A stretch of DNA of 64,000 bases from a virus (lineage: Duplodnaviria > Caudoviricetes). A program made the position numbers and the translations under genes. This document shows positions 32,156 through 64,000 of the stretch, one piece after another. Where the stretch lies: the IMG/VR virus record IMGVR_UViG_3300048854_000106, positions 187 to 64,186 of that record. One strand, 5' to 3'. Positions within the stretch are counted from its first letter, which is position 1. The number at the start of each line of letters is the position of its first letter. The notes under the pieces were generated by a model, which worked only from the letters and a program-made list of their open reading frames with translations, did not search any database and was not told the DNA's origin.

Positions 32156-32686
32156 ATGAACATTCACGCTTCCTCACCGAACCCGCGCAAATGCGCTCGA
32201 GCACTTGACGACGTGCGTCTTCGCAAGATGGTGCTCGAGACTGCTCAGATGCTTTGCACTGTCCTCAACCTTCGTGCTGGCGAACAGGTCACGCCCTATC
32301 GCAACAGTCACGCAACCAACAAGCTCGTACTGTGGGCAAGCAAACGTCGCAACTATCATTGGCTATGGAGATACGGCTTTGAGCTCGGCGAAGAATACCA
32401 CAGACGATTTGGGAAAGCGCACGCATCCTTCCTCGTCATCCAGAATCTTGTACCATTCTGGGGACGGCAACCACCCGGCGAACCTCGATCCTTCTGTAAC
32501 GCCGCTAGTTCGTCGAGTTTGGGTCTTAACTTCTTGTATGAAGACAACGTTCACAAGGCATATCGAGCTTATATGACAACTCGTTGGGTGATTGACTCCA
32601 CAGTGCCTAAAGCGAAGTCGAAGAAGATTGTTCCGCCGAAGTGGACAGCCTGTCATCCGCCAAAATGGGCGAAGGTAGCACGATGA
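32156..32686 (+). CDS. Pyrimidine-dimer DNA glycosylase (DenV/Pyr_excise)-like protein
   Basis: MNIHAS..P..CA..L.D..L.KMVLETAQML, NYHWL...EEY.RRFGK.H pattern. Confidence 0.7.
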   Translation: MNIHASSPNPRKCARALDDVRLRKMVLETAQMLCTVLNLRAGEQVTPYRNSHATNKLVLWASKRRNYHWLWRYGFELGEEYHRRFGKAHASFLVIQNLVPFWGRQPPGEPRSFCNAASSSSLGLNFLYEDNVHKAYRAYMTTRWVIDSTVPKAKSKKIVPPKWTACHPPKWAKVAR

Positions 32687-55292: not shown

Positions 55293-57207
55293 TCTTCTTC
55301 GAGGGGTCTTTCAACGACCACATCTCTACCTTGGAAGACCCCTTCCGTTCCTTCTCCTTGACGACACCCATCCGGGCAGCTGCTCGTTCGAGTAACTTCG
55401 AGCTGACACTACGTGTCTCCGCCATACGAAACAACTTTGACTTATCCATTGGTCCTTCGGCGATCTGCTCCTCAAGGAATTCCATGGCTTCCTGCATGCT
55501 GTCGCCAACCTTGCCTTCGGCACGAGCGTTTGATGCTGCGTCCATGATCTCTTGTGCGCTCAGATCGGTGTACTCTCCGAAGATGAATTCCGATTCTTCT
55601 TTCGGCCTTTCTTCGATCCTGAACGTGAGCGCCCTCGGCGCTTTCGCAAAGTTAATCTTAGTAATCGCCACTGCACGATTTTCAGTGTCAGCAGGGTCAA
55701 CGCCAACAGACATAACAACGCGAGCAGTTCCACTAAAAGCGATAGAACCTTGACCACGATACATAGCACTGCCGGACCCCTTGGTTAAGTGCCGCAAGAC
55801 TACGACCGCACAGTTGAACTGACGAGCTATGTCTGCGAAGCGATTGATTGCAGCTGTGGACTCGGACGCCTTGTGCGTATCTGCCCGACCAATATATGCG
55901 TTGAGCGTATCGAAGACAACAAGCGTCGGCTTATATATTTCGAGCGCATCATATATCTCTTCCATCGCGTCTTCATCATCGATAGTAAAGAATTGGTTCA
56001 TGACGATCAGGTCTTCGAGTTTCTTCATACCGTTCTGTTCAAGGCGCGGTTTCGTCACGGATCCTGCGCTGTTCTCCATATCGAAGTAAACGACGGTGCC
56101 TTGAACTTTATGGTTCTTGCCCACACGAGGTGACGGGAGACGTTTACCTTTCGCGATATGAGCTGCAACCATCTGCATAAGATAAGACTTGCCGAGGCCA
56201 GGATCACCTTCAACGATGCTAACTTCGCCACGCACGAGATAGGGATACCACACGAAGTCAAGCTCTTCTTTCTTGACCTCGGTCATGCGACGGAAGTTGA
56301 AACGCTTCTCGCCTTCGACTTCCTCACGACTCTCGTCAGCATCACTCTTACGCTTCAGTTTCTCCTTGCCTTTGGGAGCTTGACTGAACTGGTGGTTGAC
56401 TATCTTCGAGAGTTCGTTTCGAAGGATAGCGTCTCCGTTACGCCGGTTGCGGAACTTGTTCCAGATCGACCGCTTGATCAGTGCAAAGGCTTCATCTGTG
56501 GACAATCCTGCTTCAATACACGCATTCTCAAGCTTCCATAGCATCTCGCTGCGGTCAGCACCATGAAGGATCTTTTTCGCCATAAGCTCCCTACGAAGCC
56601 AACGAGGAAGGTTCTTCTCATGCTCTTCCCACACGTCGACCGGGTTCAGCTCGTCGGGATCAGTGTCGATCTCTTCTTCGGGAGGTAGCGCAGCCTCGAT
56701 CTGCTTGATCGAATAAGTACGACCGTCATCCCACATGCCTTTGACGCGCGGTTCCGACTTGTACTTATAATTACGCGTGCCCGGCATTCTTAATGCCTGA
56801 GTCAAATCCCAGCCGCCGTGATCGGCGTCTATCATGTAAGACATCCGCCGGTTCATGGACTCCGTCATGGTTCCCTTGAGAACCCATATGCCTACGAAGC
56901 GACCAGGCGAAGACTCGATAGCGATTGTGGGCTTCAACTTCAGCTTGCGAGGATCAGCGAAGTCGAGATCGGCCCACAGTAGGTTCGGAAGCACCGCCTC
57001 CGTTTTACTACGTGACCGTCGATTGAAACCGTGAGGACAGAAGTAGATATTCTTGTGCTCGTTGTCGAGAATGAACTGCTTGACCTTGGAGAACTCTTCC
57101 GGTGAGAAGAATGTATCCTTCCAATCGTCCTTCATGTCCTTGGTAGAGATACAGAAGAACTTGCCCGGCTGCTCTTTCCACATCCGCAGTATTGTCTTAT
57201 AGTTCAC
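55282..57207 (-). CDS. Primase (RepB-like AEP)-helicase (AAA_25/RepA-like) fusion
   Basis: LWADLD, IESSPGRF, LRMPGT.NYK primase motifs; GDPGLGKS Walker A, VVFDTL Walker B. Confidence 0.85.
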   Translation of the reverse strand: MNYKTILRMWKEQPGKFFCISTKDMKDDWKDTFFSPEEFSKVKQFILDNEHKNIYFCPHGFNRRSRSKTEAVLPNLLWADLDFADPRKLKLKPTIAIESSPGRFVGIWVLKGTMTESMNRRMSYMIDADHGGWDLTQALRMPGTRNYKYKSEPRVKGMWDDGRTYSIKQIEAALPPEEEIDTDPDELNPVDVWEEHEKNLPRWLRRELMAKKILHGADRSEMLWKLENACIEAGLSTDEAFALIKRSIWNKFRNRRNGDAILRNELSKIVNHQFSQAPKGKEKLKRKSDADESREEVEGEKRFNFRRMTEVKKEELDFVWYPYLVRGEVSIVEGDPGLGKSYLMQMVAAHIAKGKRLPSPRVGKNHKVQGTVVYFDMENSAGSVTKPRLEQNGMKKLEDLIVMNQFFTIDDEDAMEEIYDALEIYKPTLVVFDTLNAYIGRADTHKASESTAAINRFADIARQFNCAVVVLRHLTKGSGSAMYRGQGSIAFSGTARVVMSVGVDPADTENRAVAITKINFAKAPRALTFRIEERPKEESEFIFGEYTDLSAQEIMDAASNARAEGKVGDSMQEAMEFLEEQIAEGPMDKSKLFRMAETRSVSSKLLERAAARMGVVKEKERKGSSKVEMWSLKDPSKKTKK

Positions 57208-57380
57208 GCAACCCGCTCCCGACTCAAACGCTCAACCTCTGTTGCGGGAATAAGCTTCATCCGTCCCAGCGTATCATACTTAACCTTCCCTCGCGCAATG
57301 CGCTGTAATAGTGTCTTGTATTCGAGACCGACCAAGTCAGCCGCCTCTCGGACGGTATAGAAGTAACCCGGATTTAACAT
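57204..57380 (-). CDS. Excisionase-like/MerR-type HTH protein
   Basis: YTVREAADLVGLEYKTL...I..G.V...GRMKLIP..EVERL. Confidence 0.7.
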   Translation of the reverse strand: MLNPGYFYTVREAADLVGLEYKTLLQRIARGKVKYDTLGRMKLIPATEVERLSRERVA

Positions 57381-57395
57381 GAGCCCCCAGCGGCG

Positions 57396-57425
57396 TTGAC
57401 ACAACGGATTAACTTGGGTTATAAC
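57396..57425 (+). promoter_or_regulatory. sigma70-type promoter of the nucleotide cassette/polymerase operon
   Basis: TTGACA-N18-TATAAC with a TTAA half-site in the spacer. Confidence 0.7.
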
Positions 57426-57465: not shown

Positions 57466-57978
57466 ATGATGGTAGTAATTGAAGGTATGGACAACTCTGG
57501 CAAGAGCACGTTGGCGCTCGCGTTGTCTGATTATATGCGTCTACCAATCATGGAAAGTGAAGGGCCGCCGAAGTCTGACGAAGAGATCAATGAACGCGTG
57601 GACAAGTATGAGCGCTTCGGCGACGCGTTTCTTTATGATCGTCATCCCGTCGTGTCCAATGAGATTTACGGCGCCGTTCGTCTCGAAGGCAACCCGATCA
57701 CGCCGGGCCGGTCGATGATTTTCTACGAGTCGAAGCCGATCTTCATTTATTGTGACGCAGGTGAGCGCGGTCTTGATGCGCATGTACGCAAGGCGCACGA
57801 TACCGACAAGCATATCGATGACATCACCCGCAACTATACAGCGCTCCTCGAAGCGTATCGAACCTGGGCTGCCAAGCACGCTCATTTCATGTATAGGATC
57901 GGCGATGATATGGACGGGATCAAGGGGGCCGTTCATTACTACCGCTCATTCCTCCTGGCAGTTCAAGAACAAGGATAA
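57466..57978 (+). CDS. Deoxynucleoside monophosphate kinase (TMK-like P-loop)
   Basis: VIEGMDNSGKSTL P-loop and YDRH motif. Confidence 0.8.
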   Translation: MMVVIEGMDNSGKSTLALALSDYMRLPIMESEGPPKSDEEINERVDKYERFGDAFLYDRHPVVSNEIYGAVRLEGNPITPGRSMIFYESKPIFIYCDAGERGLDAHVRKAHDTDKHIDDITRNYTALLEAYRTWAAKHAHFMYRIGDDMDGIKGAVHYYRSFLLAVQEQG

Positions 57979-57983
57979 TATAC

Positions 57984-58718
57984 ATGGACGAAACCACACT
58001 GGTCGATCGACTTATGGCGGGCGAAGAAGTCAGCTATGAGTTCAAGATCGAACAAGCCGGCGACGTTGTCCGCATGCTGATCAAGTCAGGCAAGGGCGCG
58101 GTGAAGTCCGGTCAATCCGAAGCAGCTCGTGCGATCGTTGCTCAGGCTGAGATGATCATGCAAGAGCTGCACGTCGAGCCGCGTGCTCCAGACATCATGA
58201 AGGATGTTGTGGCATTCCACGAACAGTTCGGTCTGGCGTATCAGGGCAAGCCTCGTGACTTGCGCACCGAGGTCGAAGCGAACGGCAGCACGCTGTACGA
58301 ATTCCGCCTCGGGTTTATGCGCGAGGAGATCAATGAGTATGAAGATGAGCAGGAAGCGCTCACTATCGCTCGACTCGCCGGCGATGAAGACGAGGTTACA
58401 CTTCGTCTGCACAAACAGCTCGATGCTCTGGTAGACGCGGTCTACGTGATTGTGGGTACGGCTTACCTGCAGTTCGGCAAGGATGTGTGGAACAAGGCTT
58501 GGGATCGGGTGCAGGCCGCCAACATGGCGAAGGTTCGTACCGAGCGTCCCGAGGACAGCAAGCGCGGCTCAGGCTTCGATGTCGTCAAGCCCGCAGGGTG
58601 GGTTGAACCCGACCACAGGCCGGACCTCAAGGACCATGCCCATGTCATCTTCCGTGCGCCTGGCGAGTTGAATAAAGATCACGCGCATGATACACAGGTC
58701 ATTCCGACAGCGCAGTAA
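57984..58718 (+). CDS. MazG-like (DR2231/PRA-PH type) dNTP pyrophosphatase
   Basis: VVAFHEQFG, REEINEY, DALVDAVYV, VQAANMAK, VVKPAGWVEPD motifs. Confidence 0.85.
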   Translation: MDETTLVDRLMAGEEVSYEFKIEQAGDVVRMLIKSGKGAVKSGQSEAARAIVAQAEMIMQELHVEPRAPDIMKDVVAFHEQFGLAYQGKPRDLRTEVEANGSTLYEFRLGFMREEINEYEDEQEALTIARLAGDEDEVTLRLHKQLDALVDAVYVIVGTAYLQFGKDVWNKAWDRVQAANMAKVRTERPEDSKRGSGFDVVKPAGWVEPDHRPDLKDHAHVIFRAPGELNKDHAHDTQVIPTAQ

Positions 58719-58730
58719 AGGAGACAGCGC

Positions 58731-58961
58731 ATGAACACCGAAGCACAGCCTGAAGCCGAAACGGGACCCGCGGCAGTCTCGGAAGAGGCGACCGACGCGT
58801 TCTACAAGCTCGAGCAGGAGATCAAGGACGATTTCGAAAAGCTGAAGGCAAAGGTCGAGGCGCTCGACTCGAGTCGCTTCATCAGCGCGGCGAAGACCAA
58901 GCTCGACGAGGCGTGGCACTGGGTGCGCGATCACCTCGAAGAACGGTTCGAGAAGCTCTGA
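58731..58961 (+). CDS. Small helical protein, possible Acb2/Tad1-like sponge
   Basis: GGAG RBS; SRFISAAKTKLDEAWHW motif. Confidence 0.55.
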   Translation: MNTEAQPEAETGPAAVSEEATDAFYKLEQEIKDDFEKLKAKVEALDSSRFISAAKTKLDEAWHWVRDHLEERFEKL

Positions 58962-59146
58962 TGTTCGGCAGGACGACTCGCGAGGTTCGTGAGAGCCTCA
59001 AGAAGAAGATGCCGAAGTTCTTCGGTTCGATTGCGAAGTTGAACCGTTGGACGAATGAGCCACACAAGCACGAACGCGAACGGCGCCGCAACGGCTACGT
59101 TTGGAGAGGCGGCAAGACAAACGCCTGGGTGAAGAAGGGGAAATAA
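58961..59146 (+). CDS. Small basic hypothetical protein
   Basis: TGATG coupling. Confidence 0.5.
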   Translation: MFGRTTREVRESLKKKMPKFFGSIAKLNRWTNEPHKHERERRRNGYVWRGGKTNAWVKKGK

Positions 59147-59147
59147 C

Positions 59148-59993
59148 TTGAAGCGCGAATGGCTCGATCATGTACTCCGTATGTCTGCCAAGAAGGCTGA
59201 TCTCTACGCAGGCTGCCGCAAGATCATCATGGGAGTACAGCTCGAGTTCGACGACCTGTGGAATTACCAGGAACCTCTCGAGCTGGAGGACGCGGGTTAT
59301 ACGCGCAACAAGTTGGCTCACCTTGTTCGAGGCTACCTTCACGAAGAGTCAATCGAGAAGGCCGTGATGTTGTGGAACCTGCGCCGCCAGAAGACTTCCT
59401 ATGGCAGTGTGGGTTTCACGACGTACAACCATTTCCTCAAGAACGACGCCGTGAAGAAGTCGAAGCGTGCCTCCGTTATGGGACCATGCATCCAGGCTGT
59501 TACGATCACGCAACTCAAGGGGGTTGGTAAAAGTGGCAAGGGTGGGGCCTACCGTATCGACGCGTTTTACCGCACTACTGAGCTTCTCAAGAAGTTTCCC
59601 GCTGACCTGGTGTTTATTCGAGACGTCCTCCTCAAGGACTTTGATTTCACTGGAATGGAATTCCAAGGGCTCACTTGCCACTTCGCGAACGTCACGATCC
59701 ACCCTCAATATTTCGTGACTGCGCTGATCCATCTCGACGACTGGGAAGAACAGCTCGAAAAGTTGAAGAAGCGCGACATCTATTTCTATAATTGGTGCAT
59801 CAAGTGGACTGCTCGGTACCTGTGCGAAGAGCATTACCGCGGCATTGCCAAATTCGCACAGGCGCTGCGCGTCAAGGATCACGCCGACACGATCAAGGGT
59901 AAGAAACGCAAGAAGCTTACAGAATATCTTCGTGCTAATCACCCAGGTCACACTAAGGAGTACGTCGAGAAAGACGACGGCGATGACGAATGA
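59148..59993 (+). CDS. Divergent thymidylate-synthase-fold protein
   Basis: MGPCIQAVTI and FYRTTELLKKFPADL align by eye with ThyA LAPCHAFFQF and YQRSCDVFLGLPFNI. Confidence 0.65.
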   Translation: MKREWLDHVLRMSAKKADLYAGCRKIIMGVQLEFDDLWNYQEPLELEDAGYTRNKLAHLVRGYLHEESIEKAVMLWNLRRQKTSYGSVGFTTYNHFLKNDAVKKSKRASVMGPCIQAVTITQLKGVGKSGKGGAYRIDAFYRTTELLKKFPADLVFIRDVLLKDFDFTGMEFQGLTCHFANVTIHPQYFVTALIHLDDWEEQLEKLKKRDIYFYNWCIKWTARYLCEEHYRGIAKFAQALRVKDHADTIKGKKRKKLTEYLRANHPGHTKEYVEKDDGDDE

Positions 59994-60143
59994 GGTGGCG
60001 CCTTCGTGTCGAATGGGAAGCTGGTCGTCACGATGACTTTTGGGTACACGAAGCCCAAGACTTCATCTTTTTCTTTGAGCATCACGAAACAGAGCTGCTA
60101 AGCGGTTGCCTTACAACAGAGCAAGTCAAGAGGAGACTAGAAG

Positions 60144-61061
60144 ATGCGTCCGTACATGTTCCCGACCTTTGCCGAAGCGATCCAGCAGGCGGGTCATCAG
60201 TTGCTTTATCGTAGCGAGGTCGTCCACAGCAACCGTTGGCAAGGAATGACGATCGAAGGCAAGCCTGAGATGGCGACGCACGAGATAACTCACTGCACCT
60301 TCGGTGTCCATATGTACAAGATGATGTATGTGGGCAATGACCCATTGATGGGGAAGCTGCGGGGCAACTTCCTCGGCGTGCTGCAGAACGACATCAAGCC
60401 GAACCTGCCTTGGGCCGATGACCATTTTGATGAACGGGTCTCGGGTGCACCGATGAACCCCGGTACCGAATGGAAGAATTGGCCTTACGGCAAGAGCGCC
60501 GCACGCTTCCTCGAAGAAGGCAAGTTTAACCACAACTACATGGAACGATATTGGCCGAAGCATGCCGGCGATGTCGTTGAACCGACGGAGGACGCAGTTG
60601 ACTGGAGAGACAAATTTGATCTCCTCGAGTGGGGATCACTTCCAACAACAGAAGGAGGCGTTGTACCAAGCCATCGAGGAATTCGATACGAGTATGGGGA
60701 CCTTTCCGACGTGGTCAAGCTTCTTGCCGACGACCCACTCACTCGACAAGCATATCTACCCATGTGGTTCCCTGAGGACACCGGGGGCGGAGCGAAGCGT
60801 GCGCCGTGTACTCTTGGATACCACTTCCTTGCAAGAGACGGCTTTCTTGATATCGACTATCATATCCGATCCTGCGACTATATTCGGCACTTCCGCGATG
60901 ACATCTACCTCACCGCCAGACTCGTCAACTGGGTCCTTGGACGACTTCGTCAGCTTGATCTTGAACGGTGGCAAGACGTTCGACCTGGCAAGTTCATCAT
61001 GCATATCGGCTCTCTGCATGTCTTCCGCAATGACTTCCAAATGTTGAAGAACGGTGGGTGA
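60144..61061 (+). CDS. Thymidylate-synthase-fold C5 (hydroxy)methyltransferase, dCMP-type signature
   Basis: TRQAYLPMW, APCTLGYHF, IRSCDYIRHFRDDIY, IGSLHVF motifs. Confidence 0.85.
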   Translation: MRPYMFPTFAEAIQQAGHQLLYRSEVVHSNRWQGMTIEGKPEMATHEITHCTFGVHMYKMMYVGNDPLMGKLRGNFLGVLQNDIKPNLPWADDHFDERVSGAPMNPGTEWKNWPYGKSAARFLEEGKFNHNYMERYWPKHAGDVVEPTEDAVDWRDKFDLLEWGSLPTTEGGVVPSHRGIRYEYGDLSDVVKLLADDPLTRQAYLPMWFPEDTGGGAKRAPCTLGYHFLARDGFLDIDYHIRSCDYIRHFRDDIYLTARLVNWVLGRLRQLDLERWQDVRPGKFIMHIGSLHVFRNDFQMLKNGG

Positions 61062-61296
61062 TTTCCACAACAACGATGCGGTCGACGAGACTATCGCTGA
61101 CGAGACCCGGACCTTAGCTGAGCTGCTTTGCTTCGAAGGACGTTGCATGGCTGCTGTGGTCTCAGTCTCGATCGATCTAGCATCTCGCGATGCCGTGTCG
61201 GGTTTCACCCTTGCAGCGCCAGCCGAGATGCGAACCTACTTGATCGATAAGTTCATCGAGTATCTTGAGGAAATTCGAGATGGAAAGAAGGATTAG
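61054..61296 (+). CDS. Small acidic hypothetical protein
   Basis: GTGA-type coupling with the TS gene. Confidence 0.5.
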   Translation: MGDFHNNDAVDETIADETRTLAELLCFEGRCMAAVVSVSIDLASRDAVSGFTLAAPAEMRTYLIDKFIEYLEEIRDGKKD

Positions 61297-61798
61297 TCGA
61301 CAGCAGATGTTTTTGGGAATGAGTAGGCTCGCAGCAATGCGGGCCACTTGCTTTCGCTTGAACGTCGGCGCGATCATTACCCACAACAATAACCCTGTGG
61401 CGATTGGATGGAACGGTGCACCAAGTGGACAGGCTCACTGTGCTGGAAACGATTGTCCTGGCGTTGTTCCTGGTCACTGTTCAACAATCCATGCAGAGGT
61501 TAACGCCTTGCGAAAGGCAGAAAAACTTCTGGAGTTCGGTAGCGATGTCGATCTGTATTGCACTCATAGTCCGTGTGCTGATTGCCTTGATCTTCTAATG
61601 CAGAGCAAGCTATACGTGCGCAGCCTGTTCTTCGAGATACCTTATCGCAGCACCCAACACCTCGGTCGACTCAATGGCCCGTATAGGTACGAAGGTGATC
61701 CCATGATGAAAACCACGAGAGTGACAGGAGTTTACGAAGTCACGCCCGCAGGTTATACTGTTGAGTACTTCACGCGAAGGGTTGTTGACCTTGGGTAA
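61280..61798 (+). CDS. dCMP deaminase
   Basis: VGAII, GWNGAPSG, IHAEVNAL and HSPCADC zinc motifs. Confidence 0.9.
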   Translation: MERRISRQQMFLGMSRLAAMRATCFRLNVGAIITHNNNPVAIGWNGAPSGQAHCAGNDCPGVVPGHCSTIHAEVNALRKAEKLLEFGSDVDLYCTHSPCADCLDLLMQSKLYVRSLFFEIPYRSTQHLGRLNGPYRYEGDPMMKTTRVTGVYEVTPAGYTVEYFTRRVVDLG

Positions 61799-64000
61799 GA
61801 AATCACGGGACCAGATTATGCTGGTCACCGAGTCAAAGCAAATGAACCCGCGGGCAAAGTCGATCCTCATGGATGCGATGCTGTCCGCGGGTTTTGAGAA
61901 GAATGATTTCCGCTGGGCACGCGCATTGCCCAAGCCGCCGGAACCCGGCAAGAACGTTACCAAGACGATGATGAACGCCGCGCGTCCGATCGTGCAGGAG
62001 CGCATCGATGAGAAGGACCCGAAGTACCTTGTCCTGCTTGGCGGTACCCCACTGACAACAGTGACCGAGCTGACGGGCATCAGCAAGCTGCGCGGCAAAC
62101 CAATTAAGCATGACAATCGAATAGTCATTCCCACAATCAATCCACATCAAGCGCTCGCGGATGACCGTTGGGTGGATGCCTTGATCCGCGACATGCAGCG
62201 ACTACGCGAATGTGTGGACTTTGGCGGTATACCTGAAGAGCGTGGCCTAAACTTCGTCGTCGTGGATAATCCCGCGAAGCTGAAGGCGATGTATAAAGCC
62301 TTGCGCGGTACTGTCGCAGTCGATCTCGAAACGACACGACTCTACCCCTACTTCACGATGATGGACCAACAGATCAAAGATGGTCACGCTTCGAAGGCTT
62401 TGCTTGATGCCCACAAAGGCACTCACGGTTCAAACAATCTTCCGGCCGTTGTCGCGATGCAGTTCGGCTGCCGAGACAAGCAGTACGTGGTTCCTATGGA
62501 GACTGCGGACATCTGGTCGAAGAAGATGCTCAAGAAGATTGTCAAGAAGGTCACGCGTCTTCTCGACAACTGCTTCACCGTATTCCACAACGGTAAGTTC
62601 GACTGCCTGTGGATGCTAGTTCGGTTCGGCGCCAAGTGGACCGTCGACTTCGATACAATGCTCGCGCACTACATGTGCGACGAGAACGACCGTCATGGCT
62701 TGAAGGAACTTGCGCAGAAGTACTTGGGTGTTCCTGACTGGGACATTGGTGGCAAGGAAAAAACATCCTGGTCATATGAAAATGCCAAGTACGCTGCTCA
62801 CGACGTCTACTACACAAGGAAGCTGAGGTTCATCCTCGGTAAGTTGCTCGATGAGGACAGCGACACCAAGCGCGTCTTCGAAAAGATCATGATGCCGTGC
62901 GTGGCTCTGTTCATCAAAGCAGAGTTCCGCGGCGTCTATATTAACATGGATCAGTTCGACGAGGCTGAGGCATACCTTCGTGAGGAAGCTGCCAAGGCGT
63001 TGAAGAACTTGAAGCAGTGGGAAGGCAAGGCCACACTTCGGGATAAGAAGACCAACGAGTTCAATTGGGGTAGTGCTGATCAGCTGGCGCACCTGTTGTT
63101 CGTTGACCTCAAGATCAAGCCTATCGATAAGACCAGTGGAGGTAAGAACAGTGTTAGTGAGTCTGTGCTACTTCGCATCGATCATCCCATGGTCGGTGAC
63201 CTTCTGGCTTGGCGAGCAGCCAGCAAACAACTTTCGTCGTTTATTGATGGTTGGCGTCCTTACCTGGATCTTAATGGCCGGCTCCATCCTAGCTTCAAGT
63301 TACACGGTACTGTTACTGGGCGTTTGTCTTGTGAAAACCCCAACCTCCAGCAAGTACCTCGTGATCCTCGTATCCGTACTCTTATCACAGCTGCTCCTGG
63401 CTTCGTGCTTATCGAAATGGATCTCTCGCAGATTGAGCTACGTATCGCTGCGGAACTGGCTGATGAGCATTCGCTGCTACAGGTGTTCCACGATGGCGGC
63501 GATCCGCATTGGCAAACGGCCATTAGAGAAATCGAACGAGGCGCTGGATACAAAAAAGAAGTAATCAAAACCGCGAAGCTTCACAGCGGCGGCAAGAAGA
63601 TGCGCTACAGTGAAGCGATTGAGTATATCCTCGGCATCGGCGGTGACGCCGCAGTGGATACTGTCAGCAAATGGTCCGAGACGAAGAAGCTCAAGAAGGC
63701 GTTCATTGATTGGAAGGAAACACGTAAGAAAGCCAAGGCAATCAACTTCGGCTACCTCTACGGCATGTGGTGGAAGAAGTTCAAGATATATGCGAGAGAC
63801 AACTATGGTGTTACGGTTACGGATGATGAAGCTCAGGCTTCGAGGGAGTCATTCTTTGCGCTTTACCCGGGTTTCCCGGCGTGGCACGAGAAACAACGTC
63901 GCTTCGCTCAGGTCAACGGATACGTACGGTCTCTATCTGGTCGCAAGCGTCGTCTACCCAAGGCAGCTGCGGGAAGAGATAGCCCAGAACGCCGCGAAGC
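61791..64000 (+). CDS. polA: DNA polymerase family A with degenerate UDG-like N-terminal domain and 3'-5' exonuclease (3' end truncated by the window)
   Basis: My translation of the frame (absent from the ORF track because it has no stop): AVDLETT, FHNGKFD, YAAHDV exonuclease motifs; TGRLSCENPNLQQVP; motif A DLSQIELR; motif B RKKAKAINFGYLYG. Confidence 0.92.
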   Translation, partial: MGKKSRDQIMLVTESKQMNPRAKSILMDAMLSAGFEKNDFRWARALPKPPEPGKNVTKTMMNAARPIVQERIDEKDPKYLVLLGGTPLTTVTELTGISKLRGKPIKHDNRIVIPTINPHQALADDRWVDALIRDMQRLRECVDFGGIPEERGLNFVVVDNPAKLKAMYKALRGTVAVDLETTRLYPYFTMMDQQIKDGHASKALLDAHKGTHGSNNLPAVVAMQFGCRDKQYVVPMETADIWSKKMLKKIVKKVTRLLDNCFTVFHNGKFDCLWMLVRFGAKWTVDFDTMLAHYMCDENDRHGLKELAQKYLGVPDWDIGGKEKTSWSYENAKYAAHDVYYTRKLRFILGKLLDEDSDTKRVFEKIMMPCVALFIKAEFRGVYINMDQFDEAEAYLREEAAKALKNLKQWEGKATLRDKKTNEFNWGSADQLAHLLFVDLKIKPIDKTSGGKNSVSESVLLRIDHPMVGDLLAWRAASKQLSSFIDGWRPYLDLNGRLHPSFKLHGTVTGRLSCENPNLQQVPRDPRIRTLITAAPGFVLIEMDLSQIELRIAAELADEHSLLQVFHDGGDPHWQTAIREIERGAGYKKEVIKTAKLHSGGKKMRYSEAIEYILGIGGDAAVDTVSKWSETKKLKKAFIDWKETRKKAKAINFGYLYGMWWKKFKIYARDNYGVTVTDDEAQASRESFFALYPGFPAWHEKQRRFAQVNGYVRSLSGRKRRLPKAAAGRDSPERRE

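Follow-up and report, generated by a model that had tools for sequence, protein, structure and literature searches.

Modified cytosines let phages evade restriction enzymes and CRISPR, and enzymes acting on such bases have been turned into tools for epigenome sequencing, among them 5-hydroxymethylcytosine (5hmC) carbamoyltransferase and deaminases selective for 5-methylcytosine (5mC). Here we analysed a cassette of nucleotide-metabolism genes in a 64,000-nucleotide stretch of phage DNA (the window, bases 187-64186 of the 64186-base IMG/VR virus record IMGVR_UViG_3300048854_000106), whose two central genes encode a cytosine-type thymidylate-synthase homolog (TS, 305 aa, 60144..61061, plus strand) and an uncharacterised second protein of the same fold (the paralog, 281 aa, 59148..59993, plus strand, TTG start). 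Replacement of Asn177 by Asp (E. coli numbering) is the accepted switch of a TS from dUMP to dCMP and marks the TS genes on cytosine-modified metavirome contigs (PMC8670742, PMC13326640). TS, PRA-PH and dCMP deaminase co-occur specifically on modified contigs (MetaGPA; PMC8670742), and the top neighbours on such contigs were TS, MafB19/dCMP deaminase, PRA-PH, and PolA with its exonuclease (bioRxiv 10.1101/2024.12.05.627091). The latter study also found that five of seven deaminase-linked Asn177Asp TS made 5-methyl-dCMP (5mdCMP) and that the deaminase mSCD-B5 converted 5mdCTP to dTTP and was inactive on 5mdCMP, and it proposed for Xp12-type phages a cytosine-first supply of thymidine, from a 5-methyl-dC nucleotide to a dT nucleotide. 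Both this kind of cassette and the cytosine-first idea are thus already in the literature; the new part is a class of TS with Arg at the Leu143 position (Arg143-type) together with its TS-fold partner.

By analogy with T4 and Xp12, we consider it probable, at roughly 60%, that the cassette serves to replace deoxycytidine by a C5 one-carbon derivative at the nucleotide level, that is, before replication. The TS is the first support of this reading. It matched PF00303 with 27.5 bits (cut-off 24.3), over HMM (hidden Markov model) positions 108-219 only, and phrog_160 with an E-value of 8.6e-31. In the HMMER alignment, its residues 184-301 pair with residues 161-268 of L. casei TS with a single one-residue gap, located upstream of the Cys, and its segment RSCDYIRHFRDDIY aligned without gaps to RSADIFLGVPF(N/D)IA of L. 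casei. This bears out the claim, made earlier from the letters of the window (hereafter the sequence-only reading), that the protein has Asp at the Asn177 position: the residue is Asp253, invariant in both sets of TS homologs compared (64 and 81 sequences). Moreover, the N229D mutant structure 1njc was the top PDB match with a single sequence and the second-best PDB sequence match otherwise. In the rest of the residue map, Cys222 corresponds to Cys146, Arg242-Ser243 to Arg166-Ser167, Asp245 to Asp169, Arg201-Gln202 to Arg126-Arg127, Arg219 to Leu143, Thr223 to His147, His249 to Gly173, His292 to His207 and Phe294 to Tyr209. Cys222, the predicted catalytic nucleophile, is invariant or nearly so in the 64 and 81 relatives, as are Arg242-Ser243, Asp245, His292 and the other mapped residues. 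Arg219 is invariant in both sets, Arg201-Gln202 is invariant as well, which leaves the TS without one of the two Arg of partner-subunit type, and position 147 is Thr or Ser in the signature of the class.

Further, the TS departs from a canonical ThyA both in having Asp and not Asn at position 177 and in lacking the folate-site-sealing tail and the equivalog score. It ends 52 residues past Asp253, without the ThyA C-terminal tail, and scores 17-23 bits on the NCBIfam ThyA equivalog models against cut-offs of 174-327. Its structural model aligns only to residues 1-220 of the 264 of E. coli ThyA, with Z of about 16 to many TS structures and to MilA, and a conserved insert around the invariant NHNYMERYW motif was poorly predicted (predicted local distance difference test score, pLDDT, 47-75). 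Two longer TS homologs, P0373 (387 aa) and P0374 (403 aa), are interrupted immediately ahead of the invariant NHNYM by some 115 additional in-frame residues that include a LAGLIDADG motif; this insert resembles an intein or a homing endonuclease placed in frame at a conserved site.

Like T4 gp42, the dCMP hydroxymethylase (PDB 1b5d, 6a9a), the TS has a cytosine-reading Asp (Asp179 in T4), a Thr after the catalytic Cys, a GSLHV motif and no ThyA tail, and BLASTP aligned the two with 28% identity over 80 aa (E 9e-8). Unlike gp42, it has Arg in place of Asp145 and carries a conserved insert of about 90 residues before the Tyr94-equivalent. The chain beyond the Asp runs for 52 residues in the TS, 67 in T4 gp42 and 93 in the Xp12 methylase. 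The Xp12 TS, a proven 5mdCMP synthase, is distant (26 bits, E 3e-9 on the TS-family HMM) and keeps both Arg, Tyr209, Gly173 and a long C-terminal segment, with dihydrofolate reductase (DHFR) adjacent and no TS-fold partner gene. MilA, the CMP hydroxymethylase of mildiomycin biosynthesis (PDB 5b6d, 5jnh), had the highest identity among the structural matches of the TS model (19-20%, Z about 16) and is likewise cytosine-specific with Asp at the Asn177 position, but it differs in belonging to bacterial antibiotic biosynthesis, in its ribonucleotide substrate and in having Asp at the Leu143 position. Taken as a signature, Arg at Leu143, Thr or Ser at His147, no tail and no DHFR nearby fit none of the three characterised cytosine classes (5-methyl, 5-hydroxymethyl and 5-hydroxy; 5m, 5hm and 5ho).

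For the paralog, BLASTP showed no link to the TS, and no match came from phmmer or profile searches of PDB sequences, nor from Pfam or NCBIfam. None of 92 members of its family matched PF00303 at E <= 1, and the family profile found no TS chain in the PDB. A search of 1.84 billion representatives yielded 206 relatives (representatives at 50% identity), and at 90% identity the family comprises 883 clusters. The matches in the ESM Atlas were unnamed viral clusters, in one of which 10% of the members carry PF00303. The AlphaFold2 (AF2) model, built from an alignment of the 92 relatives, is a TS fold (pLDDT 92.5) and every top Foldseek match was a TS-family enzyme, with VIA Z values of 13.2 and 12.9 for AfhB (9iqu and 9iqc), 12.7 for MilA, the second-best matching enzyme, and 10.5-11 for ThyA enzymes and the T4 dCMP hydroxymethylase (dCH). 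The sequence-only reading had spoken of two TS paralogs; the shared fold stands, no significant sequence similarity between the two proteins was found, and the name paralog is to be read here as a predicted shared fold.

The same reading had placed a cytosine-type Asp in the paralog too. We found that hhalign pairs GPC114 with APC222 and YRTTE...FPAD153 with IRSCD...FRDD253, at a non-significant E-value of 0.13. In both models a Cys precedes the same hairpin strand, an Arg and an acidic residue end the next strand, and an Asp lies 8 residues past that acidic residue, on the first turn of the next helix, as in ThyA. With this secondary-structure register, the equivalence of Asp153 with the Asn177 position is well supported, though not proven. 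Cys114, Tyr141, Arg142, Thr144, Glu145, Lys149 and Asp153 are invariant in 65 paralog sequences, and a conserved His185-Pro-x-Tyr188 stands at the end of the strand that corresponds to the one with the 3'-OH-binding His/Tyr pair, which speaks against a loss of that pair. A conserved N-terminal helix (Trp5) favours the TTG start over the 270-aa gene call of the database. The paralog is thus under strong purifying selection at its catalytic-type positions; it is genetically locked to the TS class and looks catalytically competent and cytosine-reading. Because Pfam, NCBIfam and PHROG annotation all fail to pick it up, a screen that relies on domains, as MetaGPA does, would miss it; we speculate that a missed partner might explain TS homologs that are inactive when expressed alone.

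The linkage of the pair was followed in two sets of loci. Among 64 IMG/VR loci holding the paralog, the TS follows it in 63, the exception being cut by a contig end; deaminase and PolA genes were each recovered in 61 loci, the kinase gene in 58 and the MazG-like one in 55. Within 6 kb, no DHFR was found in any of these loci (0/64) and ThyX in one. Accessory genes inside the cassette are sporadic (small open reading frames (ORFs), HNH endonucleases, a DEDD exonuclease, a ligase), and no recurrent extra modifying enzyme was seen in the cassettes of the 64 loci. No paralog-TS fusion occurred in the 64 loci, nor among proteins of 493-2000 aa, the latter being weak evidence. Starting from the TS, 80 loci were collected, of which 4 are cut upstream and 76 have enough upstream sequence; the paralog was present in 69 of the 80. 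In a mirror-tree of 40 non-redundant loci, the distance correlation of paralog and TS was 0.40 (partial 0.20) and gave no usable co-evolution signal; the paralog correlated at 0.79-0.81 with PolA, kinase or primase, and the TS distances correlated poorly with every gene.

In addition, the pair is present in the cultured phages Pseudomonas PMBT14, Serratia Serbin and Yersinia P744 (family HMM E-values of 1e-53 to 1e-61) and in Brevundimonas phage Strzyga. The gene order in PMBT14, Serbin and P744 is kinase, pyrophosphatase, paralog, TS, deaminase, PolA, Cas4-like nuclease and Sak4-like protein, and the order of the cassette genes is shared by the Brevundimonas isolates. A remote member of the paralog family lies upstream of the TS in Gordonia phage Gibbous (hhalign probability 57%, E 1e-4) and retains both the Cys and the Asp. 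The cassette type is abundant, and its chemistry is directly testable since the pair sits in phages of Pseudomonas, Serratia, Yersinia and Brevundimonas. We also noted two IMG/VR fragments of large phages (L139 and L152) in which the TS class stands downstream of a GMP-reductase/IMPDH-like gene and lacks a TS-fold partner; the TS of these fragments, like that of Gordonia phages, reads SHTYPER instead of NHNYMER.

The remaining enzymes of the cassette, all on the plus strand and all found at the positions that the sequence-only reading had given, complete the picture. The first gene (57466..57978) encodes a P-loop protein of 170 aa resembling dNMP/dTMP kinases (phrog_761 'thymidylate kinase', E 1.8e-12; matches to Pfam Thymidylate_kin and NCBIfam dTMP-kinase are weak). 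It is followed by an all-alpha, MazG/PRA-PH-like nucleoside triphosphate (NTP) pyrophosphohydrolase of 244 aa (57984..58718; phrog_671 E 3.2e-19, PRA-PH 15.6 bits and below cut-off, PDB 3nl9 E 1.5e-4). Downstream of the TS lie a zinc-dependent enzyme of the dCMP-deaminase family (177 aa, 61265..61798; PF00383, dCMP_cyt_deam_1, E 1e-17), with intact HAE and PCxxC motifs and 2hvv and 4p9c (E about 1e-17) as its closest solved structures, and PolA, a DNA polymerase of family A that includes a 3'-5' exonuclease and, at its N-terminus, a weakly matching domain resembling uracil-DNA glycosylase (61761..64000, continuing at 3-314; PF00476 E 2e-54, PF01612 E 4e-21).

Six-frame family searches of the whole 64186-base record found no ThyX, no second PF00303 match (second ThyA), no DHFR, and no GT1, GT2, Tet_JBP, C5-methyltransferase or carbamoyltransferase, which agrees with the earlier statement that canonical ThyA/ThyX and glycosyltransferases are missing. 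Another 40 ORFs, each at least 143 aa long, were scanned with Pfam or PHROG and gave only an exonuclease, a Sak4-like protein, a helicase, a ligase, an endonuclease-V-like glycosylase and structural genes. The glycosylase, at 32156-32686 (+) of the window, resembles the T4 endonuclease V that acts as a pyrimidine-dimer DNA glycosylase (PF03013, 23.9 bits, cut-off 23); the relative MW202777 likewise has an 'endonuclease V' gene, near its cassette.

Compared with the T4 pathway (gp56 dCTPase, gp42 dCMP hydroxymethylase, gp1 dNMP kinase and cd deaminase), the predicted set of nucleotide-level activities is the same. Unlike T4, the cassette has a second TS-fold protein, no glucosyltransferase and no td or frd, and its genes are packed into one operon beside PolA, in a siphophage of 64 kb. 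It also resembles the Xp12 5mC system and the MetaGPA neighbourhood in having an Asn177Asp TS beside a dCMP-deaminase-family gene, a PRA-PH/MazG-like gene and PolA, and Xp12 and the present phage are alike in lacking any other thymidylate synthase. Where the sequence-only reading looked to Xp12- and T4-type synthases, the neighbourhood indeed matches the published cytosine-modification set, but a close relation to the Xp12 enzyme was not recovered. Its proposal of an unglycosylated C5-modified cytosine draws support from the composition of the cassette and from the lack of a glycosyltransferase or DNA-level modifier; the general idea is not new. The thymine hypermodification of Carin-5 and YerA41 was considered as a model and set aside, being a different kind of phage and cassette.

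From the observed folds, conserved residues, gene content and linkage, we infer the following substrates, products and state of the DNA. The MazG-like protein would be a dCTP (and dUTP) pyrophosphatase, which hydrolyses dCTP to dCMP and clears the pool of unmodified dCTP. The TS (Cys222, Asp253) would then use methylenetetrahydrofolate (CH2-THF) to place a one-carbon group onto C5 of dCMP. The cassette kinase would phosphorylate the modified dCMP, host nucleoside diphosphate kinase would bring the product to the triphosphate, and the phage PolA would incorporate it in place of C. Finally, the deaminase would divert part of the pool of dC or modified-dC nucleotides to dU/dT-type nucleotides in a phage without its own thymidylate synthase; its substrate may be the modified nucleotide, or it may supply dUMP to host ThyA. 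The paralog would either carry out a second step on the same nucleotide or be a partner subunit of the TS.

As the product of the TS, we lean towards 5-hydroxymethyl-dCMP over 5-methyl-dCMP (roughly 45:30, the rest lying with another group), because the tail is missing, the pocket is polar and DHFR is lacking. Loss of the tail favours hydroxymethylation: in ThyA the tail closes off the active site for hydride transfer, and T4 dCH, which releases tetrahydrofolate (THF) and needs no DHFR, has no such tail (PMC6400193). The Thr at the His147 position and the GSLHV motif, both held in common with gp42, point in the same direction, as do the polar side chain at position Leu143 and the absence of DHFR from all 64 cassettes, as against the DHFR beside the TS of Xp12.

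Several observations weigh against nucleotide-level replacement or against this product. The Leu143 position holds Arg, not the Asp or Glu of the known hydroxymethylases (Asp145 in T4), which was proposed to activate the substrate water (PMC6400193); the rule is soft, the Xp12 methylase also being polar there (Asn). Host DHFR could serve a methylase, and the role of the deaminase may be no more than to provide host ThyA with dUMP. In two relatives, ThyX is part of the cassette. In the window, a 150-nt spacer (59994-60143) with promoter- and terminator-like matches parts the paralog and TS genes, and the alignment of the two proteins is not statistically significant. Moreover, 7 of the 76 TS loci with enough upstream sequence, mostly fragments of large phages, hold no paralog within 5 kb and keep all catalytic-type residues of the TS, so that the TS can probably work alone. 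The paralog was not found elsewhere in five large-phage records that carry the TS class alone, these records being 11-53% complete. Modified DNA, in the present phage as in the isolates that carry the pair, is deduced from genes, and the literature on PMBT14, Serbin, Tlacuache, Strzyga and P744 reports no restriction resistance or base analysis.

The part of the paralog leaves room for other explanations. We hold it as a tentative possibility that the paralog works with the tail-less Arg143-type TS as a system of two components, whether paired in a heterodimer or acting one after the other, and that this system makes a C5-modified deoxycytidine nucleotide by chemistry unlike the 5m, 5hm and 5ho classes. 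If this were true, a large and widespread group of siphophages (Proteobacteria, probably Actinobacteria) would carry an undescribed DNA base or biosynthetic step; if the pair makes plain 5hmC or 5mC, the finding would shrink to a new clade of an enzyme already known, accompanied by an accessory subunit.

An obligate heterodimer, in which the two proteins would pair across the usual sheet interface, swap Arg at the phosphate sites and make one product, seems to us rather doubtful, although much in the data could be read that way. The genes are tightly linked (63/64 loci) and the stop of the paralog overlaps the start of the TS by 4 nt in 28 of 63 loci. TS-family active sites borrow an Arg from the partner subunit (PMC6400193) and the TS has lost one of its two (Arg201-Gln202); the median isoelectric points of the two families are complementary, about 9.0 for the paralog and 6.3 for the TS, and the strongly conserved, poorly predicted NHNYMERYW insert would suit an interface. 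Obligate pairing is opposed by the 7 loci in which a TS with all catalytic-type residues lacks a nearby paralog, and by the full set of invariant catalytic-type residues that the paralog keeps for itself, needless in a purely structural partner.

Two sequential enzymes giving an undescribed modified cytosine appear unlikely. Here the TS would make 5hm-dCMP (or 5m-dCMP), after which Cys114 of the paralog would attack C6 again and exchange or reduce the C5 substituent. A nucleophile and a cytosine-reading Asp are kept in both proteins, and their pockets differ because the paralog, unlike the TS, mostly has bulky hydrophobic side chains there: Met, Phe or Leu replaces Leu143 in 52 of 65 sequences, and Ile, Leu or Met stands at the His147 position. 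No DNA-level modifier was found in the genome, and the signature of the TS lies outside the three characterised classes. The proposal nevertheless rests on chemistry for which no such enzyme is known, and no gene of the cassette would supply a co-substrate; in addition, the phage was recovered at about 1100x depth from a standard soil metagenome, so its DNA is not refractory to library preparation, which argues weakly against a bulky adduct.

That the cassette is a thymidylate bypass only, with the TS methylating dCMP, the deaminase yielding the dT nucleotide and the virion DNA canonical or partly modified, we consider improbable. Neither ThyA nor ThyX is encoded by the phage, the route was proposed for Xp12-type phages and 5mC-selective deaminases exist; however, in Xp12 the route goes together with complete replacement by 5mC, kinase and MazG-like genes are conserved along with the rest of the cassette, the gene set is enriched on modified and not on unmodified contigs, some relatives carry ThyX too, and the missing tail and lack of DHFR argue against a methylase. 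Very improbable, finally, is a paralog acting as a flavin-dependent dCMP C5-hydroxylase that gives 5-hydroxycytosine (5hoC), as do the 5-hydroxy-dCMP synthases AfhB (phage HY126), RB69 gp48 and DLP3 gp80, short TS-fold enzymes that act on dCMP and have Asp at the Asn177 position: AfhB 9iqu and 9iqc are its best structural matches (178 residues aligned, root-mean-square deviation 3.5), but their Z lead over MilA is below 1 and sequence identity is only 11%, the diagnostic Asn at the Asp169 position (PMC13326640) is missing from both proteins (Asp245 in the TS, invariant Glu145 in the paralog), and the present phage, unlike AfhB-type phages, has no arabinosyl or other glycosyltransferase and no NDP-sugar (nucleoside diphosphate sugar) genes to use 5hoC.

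The cassette is preceded by a sigma-70-like promoter match, TTGACA-18-TATAAC (57396..57425, plus strand), read from the sequence of an 84-nt divergent intergenic region. Its presence at 57396, as claimed in the sequence-only reading, was confirmed as a consensus match only; the -35 hexamer is perfect, the spacer has 18 nt and the match lies in the gap between divergent operons, and the promoter scanner left it unlisted since position 6 of the -10 hexamer is C. On its other side stand an excisionase-family helix-turn-helix (HTH) protein and a primase-helicase. The HTH gene (57204-57404, minus strand; TIGR01764, 29.8 bits against 28.8) lies upstream of the primase-helicase and divergent from the cassette, and its translation probably begins with the ATG at 57381 and not with the TTG at 57404. 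In the spacer between paralog and TS we observed a terminator-like hairpin (60038-60060), and a promoter-like match TTGAAG-18-TATAAT (10/12; 59763-59792, plus strand) falls inside the 3' end of the paralog gene; both are consensus matches only.

Two small ORFs interrupt the series of enzymes. One of 76 aa (58731..58961, plus strand), between the MazG-like gene and the paralog, matched the Acb2/Tad1 hairpin (PF24729, 27.4 bits against a cut-off of 27), a domain of anti-CBASS and anti-Thoeris sponge proteins. It has no homolog in the 64 related loci and fills a variable slot outside the conserved pathway; such a slot may hold anti-defence genes. The other, of 80 aa (61054..61296, plus strand), lies between TS and deaminase and has no family match and no homolog in related loci.

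The source is a virulent-type soil siphophage of about 64 kb. The record has terminal repeats and was judged complete, and PolA is split across its ends: the gene runs off the end of the window and continues at 3-314 (63999-64000 joins 2-314), a segment that aligns to residues 758-844 of Strzyga PolA and provides the last ~100 residues of the protein. Because the C-terminal end of PolA sits there, the record is a circularly permuted assembly whose 'direct terminal repeat' is an assembly overlap; the reading frame across the ends fits if the repeat has 187 bases, not 186. The soil metagenome in which the phage reached its 1100x depth is probably where it came from. Three 151-nt contigs of a soil metatranscriptome from another study are identical to the paralog and TS genes (window 59147-59499 and 60565-60715); they could be RNA or carried-over phage DNA and show neither expression nor modification. 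The closest cultured relatives are the Brevundimonas phages Strzyga and Polewnik, with cassette proteins about 55% identical.

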